Source: an uncultured delta proteobacterium
Lineage (GTDB): Bacteria > Desulfobacterota > Binatia > UBA9968
DNA: 64,000 nucleotides
Direction: 5' to 3'
Assembly: GCA_963760795.1 (NCBI GenBank)
Contig: CAVXEP010000017.1
Coordinates: 64,001-128,000 of the forward strand
Shown: one piece after another, positions 14,975-22,954 of the stretch
How positions within the stretch are numbered: the first letter of the stretch is position 1
Layout: each line of letters begins with the position of its first letter
Translations under genes and position numbers: made by a program
Notes under the pieces: model-generated
What the model was told of the DNA's origin: nothing
Database searches by the model: none
Seen by the model: the letters and a program-made list of their open reading frames with translations, nothing else

Positions 14975-15883
14975 ATGGTTGCAGAAATTCGTTACGGCGT
15001 CGAAACCATCGATCACATCGCGATCCCGGTGCGCGATCTGGCATTGAACCAGGCGTTCTACGTCGAAACTCTTGGGCTTAAATTCAAAACCACCAGGCGC
15101 AATCCCGACGGCAGCCCGCGCCAAACCTACGTGCTCGCCGGTGACAATATCATCGGCCTACATTTACCTGGCGTCAGCGCCGGCACTGCGCCGAGCGGCG
15201 CGCCGAGAATCGGCGTCAGCGTCAGCAGCCAACGTTTCGCGCAAGTTGAAAACAATTTGCGCTTGGCCAAGTACCCGTTCGAAGATCCCGTCGAACATGC
15301 AGCCGACGCGCCGCTCACCCGCTCGATTTATTTCGACGATCCCGATGGCAACCATCTGGAATTTTGTCTGCGCCGCGTCGAACCGCGGATGGAATGTATT
15401 AGCCACACGGTTTTCGAAACCTGCAATATGAAAAAGGCCCTGACATTTTACTCCGAAGTGCTCGGCACAGGCGCGCCCATCCGATGCGGCGAGGAAACCA
15501 TGATGCCGACGCAAAACGGCCAAATGATCGGTCTTGTGGAAGTCGCGGAACTATCTGAGCGCAGTAAGAAACACGGCCGCGGCTGTCACATGGCCATGGA
15601 CGTGCGCCAGGAAGATTTCGACGCCATGGTCGCTCTCGTCGAGCGCCATGGCGGCAAGAGCCAAGGCGACAAGCGCGCCGACGATGGCTTGAGACCGGCG
15701 GGTGAGCGCAGCATTTACCTCTTCGATCCCGACAACAATCGGCTGCAAATCACCGCCCACGCAGCGAATCAGCAAGCAGAACTACTCGACGACGAAGAAA
15801 AATGGCGCCGCATCATCGCCAGCCGCAAAGAGCAAGGCAAAGGCCTCACCCGCTGGGAAAGCGGCGGGAAGAAACTCGTTTAG
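14975..15883 (+). CDS. Two-domain VOC/glyoxalase family protein
   Basis: IDHIAIPV.DL...FY...LG, SIYFDDPDGNHLE, second repeat ISHTVFE...HMAMDV...SIYLFDPDNNRLQ. Confidence 0.85.
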   Translation: MVAEIRYGVETIDHIAIPVRDLALNQAFYVETLGLKFKTTRRNPDGSPRQTYVLAGDNIIGLHLPGVSAGTAPSGAPRIGVSVSSQRFAQVENNLRLAKYPFEDPVEHAADAPLTRSIYFDDPDGNHLEFCLRRVEPRMECISHTVFETCNMKKALTFYSEVLGTGAPIRCGEETMMPTQNGQMIGLVEVAELSERSKKHGRGCHMAMDVRQEDFDAMVALVERHGGKSQGDKRADDGLRPAGERSIYLFDPDNNRLQITAHAANQQAELLDDEEKWRRIIASRKEQGKGLTRWESGGKKLV

Positions 15884-15910
15884 AAAATTCTTTCGCAGTC
15901 CAGCCATCCC

Positions 15911-16000
15911 GTAGGATGGGTGGAACGAAGCGATACCCATCTCAATCAACGCCGCGTGTGACATCAACCGATGGGTTTCGTCGGAACTCAGCCATCCTAC
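15911..16000. repeat. Inverted pair of GTAG-type REP elements (REPIN/BIME-like)
   Basis: GTAGGATGGGTGGAACGAAGCGATACCCATC (15911-15941) and inverted GATGGGTTTCGTCGGAACTCAGCCATCCTAC (15970-16000) between convergent genes. Confidence 0.8.
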
Positions 16001-16105
16001 GGGGTTGCTTTGTAGTCATCATCGCGCTTAGCAAAAAAAGGGCGTAGCTAGCTACGCTCTTCGGAAATTCTTCTTTGCGTTCTTTGCGGTGAAATCATCC
16101 GATTT

Positions 16106-17131
16106 CTAATTCTTCTTTGCCAAAATCAGCGTCGTCCCCGGCAGAGTCTTGGGAATATCGCCCTGGGTCGTGATCGAAGCGAATCCCGCCTTCTTCATCC
16201 AGTCGGAATATTGCCCCAGGGTCCAGCACTCCCCTTCCGGCGTATGCGTCAGCGTGTAAACGGAAAAACGCAACGCAAATGTAGGCTCGGTGCGCTCTTC
16301 GTTGGGCACGAAGTCGTTGACGACGAAGATTCCGCCCGGCTTCAAGGCGGAAAAAGCTTTAGCAAATAATTCCTGATTGCCCTTGGGCGATTCGAAGCGG
16401 CAGAAATTGCTGGCGAGAACTAGATCATAGTGATTGGTTTCGATGTTCGCTGTTTGATGTTCGCCGTCGATAAAACGAATCTTGCCTTCCAGGCCGCGTT
16501 CTTTGTTCACCTTCTGTGCCACCGCGTTGACGTTGGGCCAGTCGAGTTGTGTGACCTGGGCGGTCGGATCGCGCGTGACGATGGTCATGCCGAAGATGCT
16601 CGAACCGCCGGCCACATCGAGCACGCGCAAGCCTTTGCGCTCACTGCCAATTTTTAGCATATCGCATAGCGCTTTGGCCGCCGGCTCGGCGATGACGATG
16701 ATGCCGAGCACGAGTTTTTCCCAAACTTGCAGCTCGGCGTTGGTATCCATGCGGCTGAGCGGCTTGCCGGTCTTGAGCGATTCTTTGAGATGAGCCATGC
16801 CGTCCCACAACGCCAAGGCGACATGACGGAAATCACCGCAATAGGAAGGTTTGCCCTTGACCAGGAAAGCCTGCGCCGATGGTGTGAGGAAATACTTACC
16901 GTCGCGCTTTTCGATCAATGACAACGCCGGCAAGCTGTCGAGCACGATGCGCGTCGCGCGCGCGTCCGTGCCAGCTTCGCGTGCCACCGCTTCGGCGCTA
17001 TCGAAACCTTTGTTGATCAGCGTGAAAAAATCGTACTCCAGCGCGGCGTCCAAGATTTGGCTGTTGGCGAAATCGCCGAGTATCCGCATCAACGGACGGG
17101 GTGAAATTTCTTCTTGGTTAGACTCGGCCAT
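16106..17131 (-). CDS. Class I SAM-dependent O-methyltransferase (Methyltransf_2 with dimerisation domain)
   Basis: N-terminal HTH dimerisation segment (AALEYDFF..I..G), VLDVAGGSS SAM motif, LDWP, ALKPGG.FVVNDF; own ATG (MAESNQ) 2 nt after the upstream stop. Confidence 0.88.
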   Translation of the reverse strand: MAESNQEEISPRPLMRILGDFANSQILDAALEYDFFTLINKGFDSAEAVAREAGTDARATRIVLDSLPALSLIEKRDGKYFLTPSAQAFLVKGKPSYCGDFRHVALALWDGMAHLKESLKTGKPLSRMDTNAELQVWEKLVLGIIVIAEPAAKALCDMLKIGSERKGLRVLDVAGGSSIFGMTIVTRDPTAQVTQLDWPNVNAVAQKVNKERGLEGKIRFIDGEHQTANIETNHYDLVLASNFCRFESPKGNQELFAKAFSALKPGGIFVVNDFVPNEERTEPTFALRFSVYTLTHTPEGECWTLGQYSDWMKKAGFASITTQGDIPKTLPGTTLILAKKN

Positions 17132-17133
17132 GC

Positions 17134-17930
17134 TTACTCTTTGTACAGCCCTTCCTTCTTGATCTGCTGATACACACCCTCGAAGAACCAGGCGAAGTAG
17201 GCCGTGCCCATGCGCATGCAATACTCCAGGTTGAAGCCAGGGCGCGTCTCGGCCTTGCCTTCGATGAGCAGGTTCTTCAAAACCATCCAGTCCAAGATCG
17301 GCATGCGCCATGATGCCGTCATGTTCTTCCAAATCGGCCTTGGCGTGGACGCGAAAGTAGACGATCTTTTCTTCGGGGAAATTATAAACCTTGCGCAGCG
17401 TCGTACCGAAGAAGCGCGCCCAATGGCCGACGGCTTCCTCGACGCAAAACGACGCCCACCACTCGACCATGGTGCCCTCGTAGAGGACGCCGCGGTAGTA
17501 CTCCAGGAACGCGCGGCACTCGGCGAGCATTTCGTATTCGACCATCTCATCGTCGTTGAGTCCGAAGTTGCGTCCCTGTTCGAGGACGATCTGAATATGG
17601 CCGGGCGGCTTGGGATGCATCATCTCGTCGGCCACATGGGCGGCGAAATGCTTTTGCAGCTCCGGATGGCGCTTGAAAAACGGCAGAGTGGCGCTGGTAG
17701 GCGACACCGTGGAAATTATTGATCTCGGCGACAAAGCCGTGCCAGTTCTGCCAGAAGATTTTGATCGCCTCCATCGGCAGTGTGCCGTTGCCCATGTCGG
17801 TGTGGAAACGACCTTTGATCAGCCAGCGGTCGGCTATGTCGAGTAAATATTTCTTTAAGTCCGCGATCACTGCGTCGGCTTCCTGCGGCGAAAGTTTTTT
17901 CCCGGAAAAATCCTGTCTGCCTAGTCCCAT
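17134..17930 (-). CDS. Heme-oxygenase-like (TenA/PqqC/CADD) diiron-type protein; two apparent frameshifts (~17688, ~17293)
   Basis: Joining three frames gives about 264 aa with ADEMMHPKPPGH, VEEA and YFRVHAKADLEEH, matching the CADD-type E..H/E/H..D..H ligand pattern; RBS aaggagg. Confidence 0.72.
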
Positions 17931-18022
17931 AATCCCCTCCTTAATTTAGCTCTGCCGATACCAATCTTTCCCGATTTCTGTTTCCGACGTTGAACCTTTG
18001 AACGCTTGAACCTTGAACGAAA

Positions 18023-19508
18023 TCAGAAAAGCGCCCCCGGGTTGAGAATATTATTCGGATCGACCAATTGTTTGATCTCTTTGACGACATCATAAAGGCT
18101 GCCGAGTCTATTATAGGGCACCGGCCCCTTGGTGCTCAGAGTCGGCGCCGTCCAGACCACGCCGCGTTCGTTGCTGAACTGCGTCACCATGCCCATCCAC
18201 TTGCGCAGCCGGCCGACGTCTTCGTCGTCATAGGGATTATAGAAAGTAAAATACTCTTCTTTGATGGCGAAATCGCGGGTGACGTAGCTATCGTGCTGCG
18301 GCGAGTGCTCGGCGTCCCAGATGCCGCATTCGCGCTTGGCCGCTTCGTCGAGGTCGTACATTTCTTTCAAAAATCGCAGCGGATACATTTTCGAGGTCAC
18401 TGCGAACATGCCGGTATGGCGCACCACCGTACCGCACCAACCGTCCGGCCCCATGATATGCCAGTCGGGCCAGCCATGCAGACCCAGCTCCTGCGCCTTC
18501 GCCCCCATCGCTTTGTCGGCGATCTCCGGCACGTCGACGCCGCCGGCGCTTTCATACACCCGCCGCATGCGCTTTTCTTTGAACGCCAGCTCTTCAGCGT
18601 CACGCGCCATGACAACGGTTTTCAGAAAAAACCAGCCGTCGTCGGGAATCTTGTTTTTGTCGTACAGCCCCTCTGCCATCGGCCAGTGATACTGCCAGCG
18701 GTCGGTGAAATGGATGTCGTAGACGACTTCGCCTCGGACTAATTCAACCAGGGAATCCTGCACCTGTTGGAGTTGATCGCGGCGGAACACGTAGCAGTAA
18801 TCATGCAGCCATTCGCGCTGGCATTGAATCGCGCGTAGACAGACTTTGCTGATGATCCCCATGGAGCCGGCGGCGAGGGTAAACAGACCCAACAGATCCG
18901 GCAGGTGAATCCATTTTTGAAACGGCCCGAAGGTCGTGCCTTGATTGGCCAGCGCGCCCAGGCGAATGGTTTCGCCGTTGGCGAGAATGACTTCCAAGCC
19001 GAGCACCATATCGGCGATCCAGCCGTAGCGGGTCATGCCATAGCCGATACCGCCTTTGTTGATCATCGCACCGATAACCACCGCCGGCCCGTAGGTGCCG
19101 AAGTTGGGCAGCATCAAGCCATGCTGGCGCAGCGCATGATGAATCGCGTACACACTGGCACCGCCCTCGGCAATCACGTACTGCATCGTGCGAATTCACT
19201 TCGAGGATCTTGTCCATGCCGAGCATGTCGAGCAAGACGCCGCCTTTGAGCGGCGAGCTGATGCCCATGCCGACGCCGCCCTTGGCGACGATGGGAATCT
19301 TATGCTCGTTGGCGAATCTCAAAATGTCGGCAACCTTGTGATTGCCTTGGGCGTCGGACTCGATGCGCACGATCACGTCTGGCAGCGCCCGGTAAGCACC
19401 GTAGGCCAGGGTGTGCTGATAATTAATCTTGTCTATCGGGTTAGTCGAAACCCGCCGTGGCCCGACGATCTCAGTCAGCTTGGCGATGATCTCGTCGAGG
19501 GAAAGCAT
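18023..19508 (-). CDS. FAD-binding oxidoreductase (VAO/PCMH, GlcD-like fold); frameshift near 19193
   Basis: PDVIVR, IPIVAKGG, GGVLLDM..MDKILEVN, VLGLEVILANGE, C-terminal DPNNILNPG. Confidence 0.85.
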
Positions 19509-19611
19509 AGAAATGGGAATTTAAGGCAAAATGCAAATATCAAAATGAAACACTGCGGTTCACAGGAGCTGGCTTGAGACTGCAATTCACATTTTGCATT
19601 GTCGCTTGGAC

Positions 19612-20385
19612 TTAAAGCTGCAGATGGCTGCCGCCGGTGATGAGAATATGGCTGCCGGTCAGCATGCTGGCCTCATCGCCGGCGAGAAATGCGATCGCGC
19701 CGGCGACATCTTCCGGGTAGAGATGCTTTTTCAGTGGCCGGGTTTCTTTGACACGCTCGCGGAATGCCTCCGGCATGATCATCGAAGCATCGGTCAGCGT
19801 GAACGCGGGAGTTACGACATTGACGGCAATCCCCAGCGGGCCGAGCTCAATAGCCATCGTGTTGGCCATCGATTCCAACGCCGATTTGGCCGCCGCGTAG
19901 GCGCCCATGCGCGGCAACGGTTGCTGCGCCAAGCGGGTGCTGACAACGATGATCTTGCCGGCCTTTTTCTCTTTCATATCCGGCAAGCAGGCTTGCACAC
20001 AGTGATAAAACGCCGACAGTTCATGGTCGATCGCCTGGTGAAACTTTTCCCAGGCGATTTCATGCAGCGGGCTAACTTGAAATGGAAAGTAAGCATTATT
20101 GACCAGCACGTCGATGGCGCCGAGTTTATCTTTGACAGCGTTGACCATCGAATCGATCTGCACCCGCTGCGTGACATCGGCCTGAAAGATCATGCCGCGG
20201 GCGCCGGCGGCTTCCACTTGGCCAAGAACCTTTTGCGCCGCTTGCTGGTTTTGATGGTAATTGACGACCACCGCCGCGCCGCCCTGGGCTAGTCGAATCG
20301 CTGCCGCCGCGCCGATGCCCCGGCTCGCGCCGGTAACCAGCGCGATTTTGCCATGAAGTGTGGGGAGCTTTTTCTCTTCTGCCAT
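19612..20385 (-). CDS. SDR family oxidoreductase
   Basis: TGASRGIG, VLVNNA, YAAAK catalytic motif. Confidence 0.92.
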   Translation of the reverse strand: MAEEKKLPTLHGKIALVTGASRGIGAAAAIRLAQGGAAVVVNYHQNQQAAQKVLGQVEAAGARGMIFQADVTQRVQIDSMVNAVKDKLGAIDVLVNNAYFPFQVSPLHEIAWEKFHQAIDHELSAFYHCVQACLPDMKEKKAGKIIVVSTRLAQQPLPRMGAYAAAKSALESMANTMAIELGPLGIAVNVVTPAFTLTDASMIMPEAFRERVKETRPLKKHLYPEDVAGAIAFLAGDEASMLTGSHILITGGSHLQL

Positions 20386-20397
20386 GGCCCGGCCAGA

Positions 20398-21879
20398 CTA
20401 GATCGCGACCTTATCTTCCGCCGCGCCCTTTTCGTATTTGGCGGCGTTGTTTTTGAACGATTCGAATTTCATCCGCACGTAAGGCGAGGTGTAGCCATTC
20501 AAGATGCGCTCGATGCGGCCCGGCTTGCTGTAAAAAGACTGAAAGGCCCAGCCCGTCAACTCACCCAACTGCTGGCGCGTCAGGTGCTTAGTCGGCATGA
20601 CGCTATGCTCCAAATCGTAAAGACTCAGATTGTCGACTTCGATGATGTTGTTCTTCACCGCCGCTTTGTAGATCGGCGAGCCGGGGATCGGATTGAGCAC
20701 TTGAATCATGACGATATCAGGATCGATTTCGTCGACCGCTTTGGCGCGCTGGCGAACCTTCGCTTCGTCGTCCTCCCAAAAGCCGTTGAGATAGGTCGAG
20801 ATGGTGGAAATATCGTTCTTGCGCAGGAACTGAATTAGTTCTTTCAACTCTTTGACACCGACTTTCATCGGTCCCTTGCGCGCTTCGGCGATCTCTTCGT
20901 CCGTGCCGCCGTCGATGCCGATCAACACTTGATACAAACCGACTTTGCGCAGCCGCGGCACCAGGTCCATGTCGCGAATCAAGTTCTGCGCCCGGCTGAG
21001 CATGAACCAGCTCATGTCTAACTTTTTCTCTTCCAACGCTTCGACCAAGTCGACCATTTTCTGCCGGTCGGAGTTGAAGTCATCGTCCATGAAGGTCAGC
21101 GCTTTGACGCCGTAGGTCTTGTTTAACAGTTCCATTTCATCGGCGACTCGCTTGCCGCCTTTAGTGCGGTGCGAGCTGAAATCCCGTGGATTGCGCTGGT
21201 CGACCAGCCACCACTCGTAGCAGAAATGACAAGCACCCTCGCATCCCCGAGAAGTCACCGATTCGTTGTAATTGGGTATCACCGAATAACCATAATACTT
21301 GTCCATCGGAAACAAATCGTAGGCTGGCAGGGGCAGGTCATCGAGATTGGCAATTACTGGCCGCGGCGGGGTCAGCACCACCTCGCCATTCTTTCGGTAT
21401 GCCAAGCCCTTAATAGCGCTGAAATCAGGCGCAGGTTTTTTCAGTTCCTCCAACAACTCCCCAACCGCATGTTCATTGTCGGCAAACACCCCGACAATCG
21501 CGAAGTCGAGTTGCGGATTATCGGTCATGATCTTCTGCGGCACCGCGGTGTACATCAAACCGCCGCCGATGGTGACGGTTTGCGGAGCGATTTCCTTGAT
21601 TTTTTGCATCGCCGCATGAAAGCGGTTGAGCGTCGCGGCGCCGCCCGCCGCGGCGATCATGGCGCCGAAGAACACCGCATCCGGCCGCTGCCGCTTCACC
21701 TCGTCGATCATCTGGTCGTCGTTCAACCCCAGCGCGCGGCAGTCGAGGACCGCCACCTCCGCGGCTTTTTTCTCGCGGATAAATGCCGCGACCTGGGCGT
21801 GCAACGAGTTGACGGCCAAATGACGGTCGCCCCACGGCGCCCAGTTGCCCATAGGGGGCGTGATAAAGAGGAGTTTCAT
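20398..21879 (-). CDS. Cobalamin-binding radical SAM protein (BchE/class B methylase superfamily)
   Basis: N-terminal B12-binding-like domain (VLDCRA, TIGGG, IKGLAYR, DDLPLPAYDLFPM), TSRGCEGACHFC CxxxCxxC, FMDDDF, PIPGSPIY; RBS ggag. Confidence 0.9.
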   Translation of the reverse strand: MKLLFITPPMGNWAPWGDRHLAVNSLHAQVAAFIREKKAAEVAVLDCRALGLNDDQMIDEVKRQRPDAVFFGAMIAAAGGAATLNRFHAAMQKIKEIAPQTVTIGGGLMYTAVPQKIMTDNPQLDFAIVGVFADNEHAVGELLEELKKPAPDFSAIKGLAYRKNGEVVLTPPRPVIANLDDLPLPAYDLFPMDKYYGYSVIPNYNESVTSRGCEGACHFCYEWWLVDQRNPRDFSSHRTKGGKRVADEMELLNKTYGVKALTFMDDDFNSDRQKMVDLVEALEEKKLDMSWFMLSRAQNLIRDMDLVPRLRKVGLYQVLIGIDGGTDEEIAEARKGPMKVGVKELKELIQFLRKNDISTISTYLNGFWEDDEAKVRQRAKAVDEIDPDIVMIQVLNPIPGSPIYKAAVKNNIIEVDNLSLYDLEHSVMPTKHLTRQQLGELTGWAFQSFYSKPGRIERILNGYTSPYVRMKFESFKNNAAKYEKGAAEDKVAI

Positions 21880-22108
21880 GTTATCTCCTGGTACCGGCGG
21901 GATTAGTTTCAATCAAAGTATTTAATAGGTTAACGATTGTCAAGATGAGCCGCCGAGAGTATCGGCGACGGACGGTTAAATCCTCGATAGAAATATTGGC
22001 TAACTGGAGATCATTAATCAGTTGACAACCTCCGACCCTTTTGGTACTGCTGCCGAAGCTAGGCGTCGGTAACAAGAACTTAATAGAAACCCCACAAAGG
22101 AGACCGTT

Positions 22109-22954
22109 ATGGCTCAAGGCGTGCAACAAGAAGAACAATTAATGGATATACGCGTCGCTGAATCGTCGGCGGCGTATAAGTTTTATCTCAATCAGGAAAA
22201 AAAGATTCTCGGTAGTTCCGCGGTGATTCTTTTCCTGTTGACTTGGGAGACCATCGGCAACTGGGCTGGACTTATTAACCCGATGTTCATGAGTGCGCCT
22301 TCGCTGGTGGGCAAGGCGGCCTGGCAAATGTTTGCCTCTGGGGAGATTTACAACGATCTCTATATCAGCGGCATTGAGTTCTTCTGGGGCTACCTTCTGT
22401 CTGTCATTTTTGCGATCCCCTTCGGCATCGCCATCGGCTGGTACAAGCGTTTCGCATACGTTTGCGATCCCTTTGTCAACGCCATGAATGCCACACCACG
22501 CGTTGCCCTGTTACCACTGGTCATCATCTGGCTGGGCATCGGCATCCTGTCCAAGGTCGGCATCATCTTTTTGGGCGCGGTGTTTCCGCTGCTGATCAAC
22601 ACCCGTGACGGTGTCAAAACCACTCCGGCAAACTTGCTCACTGCCGCCAGAAGCTTTGGCGCGTCGGAATGGCAGATCTTCAAATCCGTCGTATTGCCGT
22701 CCACCGTGCCGTTCATTCTGACCGGCTTACGCCTTGCCGTCGGCCGCGCACTCATCGGTGTCATGGTCGGCGAGCTTTACGCCGCAACCGCCGGCATCGG
22801 CTTCATGATTACGGTCGCCGGCGCGACCTTCCAAACCGATAAAGTTTTCGTCGGCGTCTTGATTTTCGCCATCAGCGGTATGACCCTGACCGAAGTCATC
22901 GACCGTTACGAACGTCGGTTCGACAAGTGGCGTCCCAAAGTCGGCGCTGAATAA
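22109..22954 (+). CDS. ABC transporter permease (SsuC/TauC-like)
   Basis: Multiple TM segments, ARSFGAS EAA-loop, PFILTGLRLA, VGEL..GIG; RBS aaggag. Confidence 0.9.
   Translation: MAQGVQQEEQLMDIRVAESSAAYKFYLNQEKKILGSSAVILFLLTWETIGNWAGLINPMFMSAPSLVGKAAWQMFASGEIYNDLYISGIEFFWGYLLSVIFAIPFGIAIGWYKRFAYVCDPFVNAMNATPRVALLPLVIIWLGIGILSKVGIIFLGAVFPLLINTRDGVKTTPANLLTAARSFGASEWQIFKSVVLPSTVPFILTGLRLAVGRALIGVMVGELYAATAGIGFMITVAGATFQTDKVFVGVLIFAISGMTLTEVIDRYERRFDKWRPKVGAE

Follow-up and report, generated by a model that had tools for sequence, protein, structure and literature searches.

The 64,000-nucleotide stretch analyzed here (the window, G000:C17:64001-128000), which belongs to a 6.58-Mb source genome (G000) of the class Binatia, raises the question of what a compact set of genes could be doing when it combines two enzyme types with opposite oxygen needs. 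Five co-directional genes at positions 16106-21879 of the minus strand encode, from 5' to 3', a B12-binding radical S-adenosylmethionine (SAM) enzyme, a short-chain dehydrogenase/reductase (SDR), a flavoprotein, a protein of the heme-oxygenase-like diiron oxidase (HDO) type and a methyltransferase, separated by gaps of 12, 103, 92 and 2 nt. A preliminary description had reported this layout, and open reading frame (ORF) calls and Pfam matches locate the genes as claimed; the pairing that it pointed out, of an oxygen-sensitive B12 radical SAM enzyme with a diiron-type HDO protein in one operon, is real. The five genes form a genuine, selected, vertically inherited and family-specific operon of Binatia. 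We consider it fairly probable that this operon, intact in nature, tailors a small metabolite that is probably aromatic or ring-bearing.

Conservation and co-inheritance of the five genes

A scan with an HDO profile, using one genome per species (310 relatives, 80 kept), returned 66 loci with an HDO protein of at least 68% identity. The five genes are complete and collinear in 49 of these loci, consistent with the same arrangement in 13 that are cut by a contig end, and different in the remaining 4. All five genes, in the same order, are present at each of the 8 loci retrieved around radical SAM orthologs with 85% identity or more, and in genome G003 the flavoprotein and HDO reading frames are intact. 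Flanking genes differ among loci; the five-gene block is constant.

The unit was initially portrayed as self-contained. The complete and contig-cut loci bear this out, with the reservation that the set is not strictly indivisible, given three relocated radical SAM genes and one locus that lacks the methyltransferase. Loci L043 and L073 have no adjacent radical SAM gene, and L083 shows the order HDO-SDR-flavoprotein followed by a GlcF-like CCG/iron-sulfur gene. All three genomes without an adjacent radical SAM gene keep a 75-77% identical one elsewhere. In two of these genomes it comes after a gene for an EamA transporter, and in the third (G409) it lies directly before the orthologous methyltransferase gene at the usual DHH-Archease-RtcB flank. 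A wider look around the relocated genes gave EamA or methyltransferase neighbors, and no UbiD gene was found within 1.5 kb of those in G407-G409. These genomes indicate that the set can be separated into a module of radical SAM enzyme and methyltransferase and a module of HDO protein, SDR and flavoprotein. Two local peculiarities were also seen. At L043 (4978-6144, minus strand), a gene for an LldD/MftD-like alpha-hydroxy-acid oxidase/dehydrogenase dependent on flavin mononucleotide, scoring below the cut-offs, is divergent upstream of the SDR gene. At L037 (12076-12330), the complete methyltransferase gene is followed ~1.3 kb downstream by a second, partial copy that covers residues 229-313 at 87% identity.

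The distribution of the operon is narrow and dense. In a class sample of 401 genomes that are at least 80% complete, an HDO ortholog (E up to 1e-95) occurs in 57 of 70 genomes of the window's family and in 1/5 of the sister family, and in none of the 325 genomes from 18 other families of the class. The 57 positives include four unpublished genomes (G004, G341, G347 and G382), without which the count is 53/66; G000 itself falls under the threshold because its gene is in pieces. The radical SAM ortholog is found in 21 of 24 congeners (20/23 without G004). Median dN/dS, the ratio of nonsynonymous to synonymous substitution rates, lies between 0.05 and 0.10 for each of the five genes in 10 diverse loci out of the 66, values that are rough because dS is near saturation. 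Strong purifying selection acts on each of the five genes.

Integrity of the reading frames

As assembled, the operon contains three frameshifts, each a single inserted base: one near 19190 in the flavoprotein gene, and two in the HDO gene, near 17688 and 17292/3. They fall inside 1.9 kb, none in a long homopolymer, and the other three genes are intact, a pattern that could be taken to mean that the flavoprotein and HDO genes are true pseudogenes and that the operon is decaying in this strain. We regard such decay as improbable. In an alignment with five related genomes, all three inserted bases are absent from the relatives and no other coding length differences appear. The extra base is likewise missing from every independent contig spanning the sites: the contigs of 4/4 independent public runs omit one base at 17292, as do those of X3 at 17688 and of X1 at 19190, each the sole run covering its site. 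The overlaid contigs are about 97-99% identical to the window, which identifies them as near relatives rather than assemblies of the same reads. The broken pieces are still 84-98% identical in protein to those of G003 and show no further damage, and comparable random splits occur in other genes of metagenome-assembled genomes (MAGs) of the same series and of G000. Within-gene splits affect 4/12 "MFD" MAG loci (L033, L034, L046 and L087), where different operon genes are hit, and 1/54 of the remaining loci (L044).

Since the inserted bases are absent from five relatives and from every independent contig covering them, the most likely cause of the breaks is the erroneous insertion of single bases in a long-read-type assembly, and both genes are most likely intact in nature. 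The frameshifts noticed earlier are thus real in this sequence and most likely not biological. The accompanying expectation that they would hide the HDO gene from automatic annotation applies to this assembly at most, as intact genomes do annotate the gene, as "PqqC" or "hypothetical". The assembly carries about one indel per few kilobases of coding DNA. Other split genes of G000 include a CCG/iron-sulfur gene, described below, and a gene for a DAO-family FAD oxidoreductase in C34 (L105:3541-4903), present as two overlapping ORFs, whose split is probably another assembly indel.

Putative promoter and terminator, and intergenic DNA

Alignment of 17 upstream regions displays a nearly invariant block of ~30 nt, CTTGACAAT..TT.A.GTATTAA.TA.TTT. 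The window copy starts ~65 nt and ends about 40 nt upstream of the radical SAM ATG. The block is retained despite a different upstream gene at L058 and L065, and at up to 2 mismatches it has a single occurrence in the window and in the whole genome. Its layout resembles a -35 element TTGACA, a spacer of ~17 nt and a -10-like TAnTTT, suggesting a sigma-70-type promoter that would drive the operon; the conserved spacer may also act as an operator. A scan with the sigma-70 consensus overlooked this block and listed two weak sites, which score under the shuffle mean. A terminator-like hairpin closes the operon (Table 1).

The GC content of the cluster (0.55-0.57) is the same as that of the remaining window. 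An Rfam scan of 15500-22500 at E up to 1 found no riboswitch and no other RNA family. In agreement with the preliminary description, the five genes and the flanking genes scanned contain no polyketide synthase, nonribosomal peptide synthetase or terpene synthase domains. Its further statement that there is no obvious precursor peptide also holds, as the DNA between the genes has neither the length nor the conservation to encode a common one; upstream, the candidates are just unconserved ORFs of 25-33 aa.

Two side observations concern this region. The gap between the flavoprotein and HDO genes contains, at 17990-18012 (minus strand), two overlapping GGTTCAA-type heptamer repeats (GGTTCAAGCGTTCAAAGGTTCAA). 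Metagenome contig depth at this repeat is 79, compared with about 10-25 elsewhere, and many loose contig ends lie at 17983 and 18018, from which it seems that the repeat is present at many unrelated soil-metagenome sites; a search with a 30-base guess at the repeat returned nothing. In the RNA run X15, short contigs lie on the radical SAM, flavoprotein and HDO genes, a weak hint that does not prove transcription.

Table 1. Coordinates of the operon features in the window and of HDO paralogue loci in two genomes
Feature	Position	Strand	Basis
Promoter/operator block (putative) CTTGACAAT-N-TATTAAATA	21919..21944	-	alignment of 17 upstream regions
B12-binding radical SAM enzyme, 493 aa, intact	20398..21879	-	Pfam B12-binding and Radical_SAM over cut-off
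Classical SDR oxidoreductase, 257 aa	19612..20385	-	adh_short_C2, 185.6 bits
VAO/PCMH-superfamily flavoprotein dehydrogenase, 494 aa if intact, two frames	18023..19508	-	FAD_binding_4 on both pieces
CADD-like HDO protein, 264 aa if intact, three frames	17134..17930	-	AlphaFold2 fold and ligand set
Class I SAM-dependent methyltransferase, Methyltransf_2 with N-terminal dimerisation domain, 341 aa	16106..17131	-	Pfam
Terminator-like hairpin GCGTAGCTAGCTACGC, then T-run CCTTTTTTTG, after the last gene	16033..16057	-	consensus match
HDO paralogues of G000 (L103-L108)	C31:10682-11443, C35:34810-35508, C35:47937-48662, C34:55181-55873, C25:150718-151323, C2:172889-173602		
HDO paralogue loci of G025	L109-L118		

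Radical SAM enzyme

The first protein matches the B12-binding domain (PF02310, 36.2 bits, cut-off 32.1) at residues 40-144 and the Radical_SAM domain (PF04055, 40.3 bits, cut-off 29.5) at residues 219-378, and its translation carries the CxxxCxxC motif for a [4Fe-4S] cluster as CEGACHFC. These domains and this motif are those of class B (cobalamin-binding) radical SAM enzymes, among which the protein is predicted to belong. Its orthologs mostly have 493 aa and start with MKLLFITPP; we therefore place the start at the ATG at 21879, not at the TTG at 21912 to which the ORF extends.

The best NCBIfam family is BchE (TIGR02026), at about 165 bits (164.3-165) against a cut-off of 481.35, followed by a P-methyltransferase family (130 bits), HpnJ (117 bits) and others, all far under their cut-offs. 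No gene of G000 reaches the BchE cut-off, and the operon gene is the best BchE match of that genome. Scores against BzaD (TIGR04385, 79.3 bits, cut-off 450) and AprD4 (NF033070, 47.4 bits, cut-off 500) are lower still, AprD4 being the best match among solved proteins (6fd2, E 3e-8). BchE-like paralogues of the enzyme, 45-71% identical, have unusual partners in other loci, adjoining UbiD, TRAP (DctPQM) or Tct transporters, or hemerythrin (L015:8363-11367 in G029, L019:6816-11394 in G025, L018 and L020).

HDO protein

The HDO protein scores just short of Haem_oxygenas_2 (PF14518): 27.5 bits for the middle piece and 27.8 for an intact ortholog against a gathering score of 28.9, which several HDO paralogues pass. 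Its AlphaFold2 (AF2) model is of high confidence (mean predicted local distance difference test, pLDDT, 94.3), and the Foldseek search proposed earlier returned the heme-oxygenase-like helical fold, with CADD/CT610 on top (1rcw, template-modeling (TM) scores 0.70/0.85), then PqqC, TenA, UndA and BesC. A profile search of PDB sequences also ranks CADD first (E 6e-6); such a profile was needed, as phmmer against the PDB gave chance annexin matches only.

Six residues, E102, H111, E165, H195, D199 and H203, are invariant in 23 diverse family sequences, and we take them to be the diiron ligands (three histidines and three carboxylates). The first five align with the metal motifs of CADD, and the last CADD histidine lies one residue before H203. 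The protein reaches 26.6 bits against the CADD family (TIGR04305), far from its cut-off of 200, and the positions aligned to CADD Tyr27 and Lys152, presumably the sacrificial tyrosine and lysine of that enzyme, are neither tyrosine nor lysine and are not conserved. JGI names the orthologs "PqqC" or "hypothetical". No pqq gene is among the operon neighbors in the window, to which this search was limited.

SDR, flavoprotein and methyltransferase

The SDR matches adh_short_C2 (Table 1) and adh_short (167 bits), and its translation contains TGASRGIG (TGxxxGxG) and YAAAK (YxxxK), the cofactor and catalytic motifs by which we predict a classical SDR. It reaches no cut-off of the NCBIfam equivalogs.

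Both pieces of the flavoprotein match FAD_binding_4 (PF01565), for which an intact ortholog scores 103.7 bits. With this domain and the two-domain fold of its AF2 model (pLDDT 82.3), the protein can be placed in the VAO/PCMH superfamily. The nearest solved proteins are D-lactate dehydrogenase (E 1.5e-27) and the 4-phenol oxidases EUGO and PCMH (E 1e-24), so that the modeled protein appears about equally close to D-lactate/D-2-hydroxyacid dehydrogenases and to 4-phenol oxidases. Against GlcD (TIGR00387) it has 88.9 bits, with a cut-off of 567.9, and the FAD domain alone aligns. The flavoprotein forms an isolated clade, where identity of at least 67% is followed by a drop to 43-47% and by another to 25-29%; when metagenomes were scanned with distant homologues, 2 of the 80 kept loci belonged to the clade of these homologues and the others were generic FAD_binding_4 proteins.

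Elsewhere in G000, at C29:340829-346849 (L207:6833-12849), lies the frameshift-split CCG/iron-sulfur gene (340829-342038) mentioned above. It is 60-69% identical to the CCG gene of G409 and is likely the iron-sulfur partner of the flavoprotein. It follows a MarR gene and precedes PNP_UDP_1, IF-2B and class II aldolase genes, a trio which, we presume, resembles a set for methylthioadenosine/5'-deoxyadenosine salvage (similar to the dihydroxyacetone phosphate shunt).

The methyltransferase matches Methyltransf_2 (PF00891, 41.2-43.8 bits, cut-off 22.3) and the Dimerisation domain (PF08100, 37.4-37.9 bits, cut-off 25.6). This combination of a dimerisation domain with a class I SAM-binding domain points to the small-molecule type of Methyltransf_2 enzymes. 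The nearest solved protein is an uncharacterised one from Nostoc (2r3s, E 4e-37), followed by MfnG, DsyB, RedM and SibL; the score against BchU (TIGR02716) is 24.1 bits, with a cut-off of 276.1.

Genomic flanks

The operon sits among housekeeping genes (UPF0182, BacA, VTT, DHH and RtcB/Archease). Downstream in the window lie an extradiol-dioxygenase-like gene and an M24 gene. The families at these two positions, named by Pfam from the window copies, recur in 17 and 21 of the 66 loci. Both genes are convergent to the operon and hence not co-transcribed with it. A CobS gene was found upstream in L058, which was scanned, and L065 has the same gene family at that position.

Divergently upstream, at 22109-22954 (plus strand), is a lone gene for an ATP-binding cassette permease of the TauC/SsuC/SaoP type, with the same arrangement in 38/66 loci. 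The intergenic region (21945-22108) holds a conserved upstream block of its own for this permease, TGTCAA ... CAAAAG on the operon strand. Next to the permease there is no gene for an ATPase or a binding protein.

Proposed function

We hypothesize that the five proteins act together in tailoring a ring-bearing molecule. The CADD-like diiron HDO would carry out an O2-dependent hydroxylation or oxidative cleavage, and the Methyltransf_2 enzyme would place a methyl group on a nucleophile, for instance a hydroxyl. The BchE-like B12 radical SAM enzyme may perform C-methylation of an unactivated carbon or, as in BchE, the oxidation of a methylene without O2. The SDR and the GlcD/VAO-type flavoprotein could account for alcohol/ketone or 2-hydroxy-acid redox steps, with the electrons of the flavoprotein probably going to a CCG/iron-sulfur partner encoded elsewhere in most genomes.

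Several features speak for tailoring. The operon contains two SAM-consuming enzymes and, inside it, no ring-cleavage, beta-oxidation, decarboxylase, coenzyme A (CoA) ligase, regulator, transporter or binding-protein gene. Its flanks are of the housekeeping kind, and a gene of the EamA exporter type lies directly before the radical SAM gene in two genomes. No characterized pathway matches, as had been suspected, since every NCBIfam equivalog score is far under its cut-off, and searches of the literature outside subscription journals found no description of this operon. The biosynthetic or tailoring pathway put forward at the outset remains the more likely reading without being established, as paralogues of the HDO protein, the radical SAM enzyme and the flavoprotein lie in neighborhoods of aromatic and organic-acid catabolism.

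Other findings weigh against tailoring, those on these paralogues among them. The HDO family is expanded: beyond the operon copy, G000 has 8 loci, and the number of matches is 18 in G025, 18 in G029 and 12 in G027. Of the six G000 paralogues examined, three lie directly beside a gene for a UbiD-family decarboxylase; the others are near Amidohydro_2, NMT1 binding proteins, Mo-hydroxylases and luciferase-like monooxygenases. Sixteen paralogues examined in G025 are found among bicupins, Rieske oxygenases, RraA/DHDPS aldolases and an FAA hydrolase, dienelactone hydrolases are among the neighbors across the two genomes, and relatives outside Binatia lie beside DmpG, a Rieske dioxygenase and PaaA. 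A radical SAM protein of G029 that is 71% identical to that of the operon is followed by a UbiD gene, one of G025 (45% identical) precedes TRAP transporter genes, and 55% identical paralogues are beside Tct transporters and hemerythrin. Flavoprotein homologues of 43-46% identity sit in UbiD-M24-SDR-FAD-Fe/S and Mo-hydroxylase-FAD-Fe/S-CCG arrangements. The operon itself adds further points on this side. In G409 it is split into one group of radical SAM enzyme and methyltransferase and another of HDO protein, SDR, flavoprotein and CCG. The methyltransferase is missing at L074, in a genome without an orthologous methyltransferase (best match 27%). Finally, the attribution of the frameshifts to errors rather than to strain-specific mutations depends on the contigs of near relatives.

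Alternative explanations

The alternative that survives best is a catabolic one, in which the operon encodes a peripheral pathway that oxidizes the side chain or ring of an aromatic, heteroaromatic or hydroxy-acid compound from soil. The HDO protein would act with O2, the radical SAM enzyme would be an O2-independent hydroxylase or oxidase, the flavoprotein and SDR would serve as dehydrogenases, and the methyltransferase would detoxify or channel an intermediate. The surroundings of the HDO paralogues (UbiD, Amidohydro_2, bicupin, Rieske, Mo-hydroxylase and aldolase genes) fit such a pathway, as do the adjacencies of radical SAM and UbiD genes in G029, of radical SAM and TRAP genes in G025, and of the UbiD-M24-SDR-FAD-CCG and Mo-hydroxylase-FAD-CCG sets. 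The dioxygenase-like and M24 genes downstream in the window and the divergent TauC/SsuC-type permease of 38 loci point the same way. However, two SAM-consuming enzymes are costly for catabolism, and the operon has no ring-cleavage, decarboxylase, CoA-ligase, regulator or binding-protein gene. The downstream genes are convergent. A single-copy operon, near-universal in its family, strongly conserved and in a housekeeping setting would also be unusual for catabolic islands, which are patchy. Because the paralogues sit in catabolic surroundings, we keep catabolism as a serious alternative, of distinctly lower probability than tailoring.

A broader and rather speculative idea, which we put forward as tentative and do not think likely, takes the expansions themselves as the starting point. 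Binatia would possess an undescribed toolkit of CADD-like HDO proteins (8-18 per genome, often paired with UbiD) and BchE-like B12 radical SAM enzymes that oxidize or alkylate aromatic rings, with O2 in the one case and without it in the other. The operon would then be the one conserved, family-wide use of this toolkit. Its product would be an aromatic cofactor or quinone-like molecule that carries methyl and methoxy groups, built through hydroxylation and O- and C-methylation without the known Ubi/Coq/Men enzymes.

It is also conceivable, if doubtful, that the radical SAM enzyme and the HDO protein are O2-independent and O2-dependent enzymes for one and the same oxidation step, allowing the pathway to work in both oxic and anoxic soil. 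The precedent is BchE, which a 2026 reconstitution study (PMC13598231) shows turning a methylene into a ketone with water-derived oxygen; the study also states that AcsF, a diiron enzyme, carries out this step with O2. BchE is the best-scoring family for the radical SAM protein of the operon, and both enzyme types are encoded in it. However, nearly every locus has both genes rather than one or the other, and in G409 they belong to different modules with different partners. Moreover, AcsF is not known to be an HDO.

Known cofactor chemistry is a much weaker candidate, and we think it very unlikely that the operon makes para-aminobenzoate (pABA) through a self-sacrificing CADD, pyrroloquinoline quinone (PQQ) through PqqC, or the lower ligand of a cobamide through methylations like those of BzaC and BzaD. 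CADD is indeed the nearest solved relative of the HDO protein, and "PqqC" is the JGI name of its orthologs. A CobS gene lies upstream at L058, and the module of radical SAM enzyme and O-methyltransferase in G409 recalls, as we see it, BzaD and BzaC. Opposed to this are the score of 26.6 against 200 for CADD, the unconserved positions of its Tyr27 and Lys152, the absence of pqqA/B/D/E nearby, the 79 bits against 450 for BzaD and the lack of a ThiC-like BzaF gene in the operon.

There is next to no chance that the genes are remnants or parts of a bacteriochlorophyll pathway (bchE, bchU, bchQ/R): homologues of bchE, bchU, bchQ and bchR are described as ubiquitous in Binatota, and as the most intriguing finding, by Murphy et al. 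2021 (PMC8262859), but the same paper reports key bch genes (bchM, bchXYZ) and reaction centers as missing, the operon proteins reach about 165 bits against 481 for BchE and 24 against 276 for BchU, and their partners, an SDR, a GlcD-like flavoprotein and a CADD-like HDO protein, are no bch genes. Public pipelines nevertheless attach the names "BchE" and "PqqC" to operon genes. Automatic names of this sort suggest bacteriochlorophyll, PQQ or pABA synthesis, and the operon encodes none of these pathways.

Implications

The operon gives a concrete identity to part of the "bacteriochlorophyll gene shrapnel" and of the "PqqC" calls in Binatota. Pathway calls made from KEGG names are misleading here because the best BchE-like gene of the genome belongs to a non-chlorophyll operon, and "PqqC" names on HDO orthologs could in the same manner inflate calls of the PQQ pathway. 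As a tight five-gene unit from promoter to terminator, the operon can be synthesized and expressed to seek a new metabolite of a host lineage that is uncultured and globally common in soil. With two enzyme classes of opposite oxygen needs, it also provides a test case for radical SAM chemistry beside O2-activating diiron chemistry. The large, unstudied HDO expansion, which often adjoins UbiD decarboxylases, may represent a new class of oxidases for aromatic compounds.

Comparison with known systems

The HDO protein shares with CADD/CT610, the 4-aminobenzoate synthase of Chlamydia, the helical HDO fold and the Glu/His/Glu/His/Asp/His pattern. It differs in its low identity (14-16%), in the last histidine, which is shifted by one (H-x3-D-x3-H), and in the unconserved positions of the sacrificial tyrosine and lysine. 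In contrast to CADD and to other HDOs such as UndA, BesC and SznF, it comes from a family with 8-18 copies per Binatia genome.

The flavoprotein resembles LDHD, GlcD of the GlcDEF system and the VAO, PCMH and EUGO enzymes in its FAD_binding_4 domain and two-domain fold (TM 0.78/0.84 to mouse LDHD). A GlcF-like CCG/iron-sulfur gene after the flavoprotein gene in G409, and after genes of distant homologues, is a further parallel to GlcDEF. Unlike in a close relative of LDHD, GlcD or VAO, identity is ~20% and the cap domain has no sequence match.

With BchE, the anaerobic oxidative cyclase of Mg-protoporphyrin IX monomethyl ester and itself a class B enzyme, the radical SAM enzyme has in common the N-terminal B12-binding domain, the radical SAM core and the CxxxCxxC motif, matching positions 36-418 of the 497 in the model, whereas its score is about a third of the cut-off, its neighbors are not bch genes, its host is not a phototroph and its partner is an SDR. 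The pair of a B12 radical SAM enzyme and a Methyltransf_2-type enzyme, which is free-standing as a module in G409, resembles the tailoring set of bacteriochlorophyll c, in which BchU accompanies the B12 radical SAM C-methylases BchQ and BchR, and the set of BzaD/BzaE with BzaC for the cobamide lower ligand; here, in contrast, BchU scores 24 against 276 and BzaD 79 against 450, and the remaining pathways are missing. AprD3 is the partner of AprD4, the two being the reductase and the diol dehydratase of apramycin. The radical SAM gene of the operon, for all that its protein reaches 47 bits against the AprD4 family cut-off of 500, likewise directly precedes a reductase-type gene, at a distance of 12 nt.

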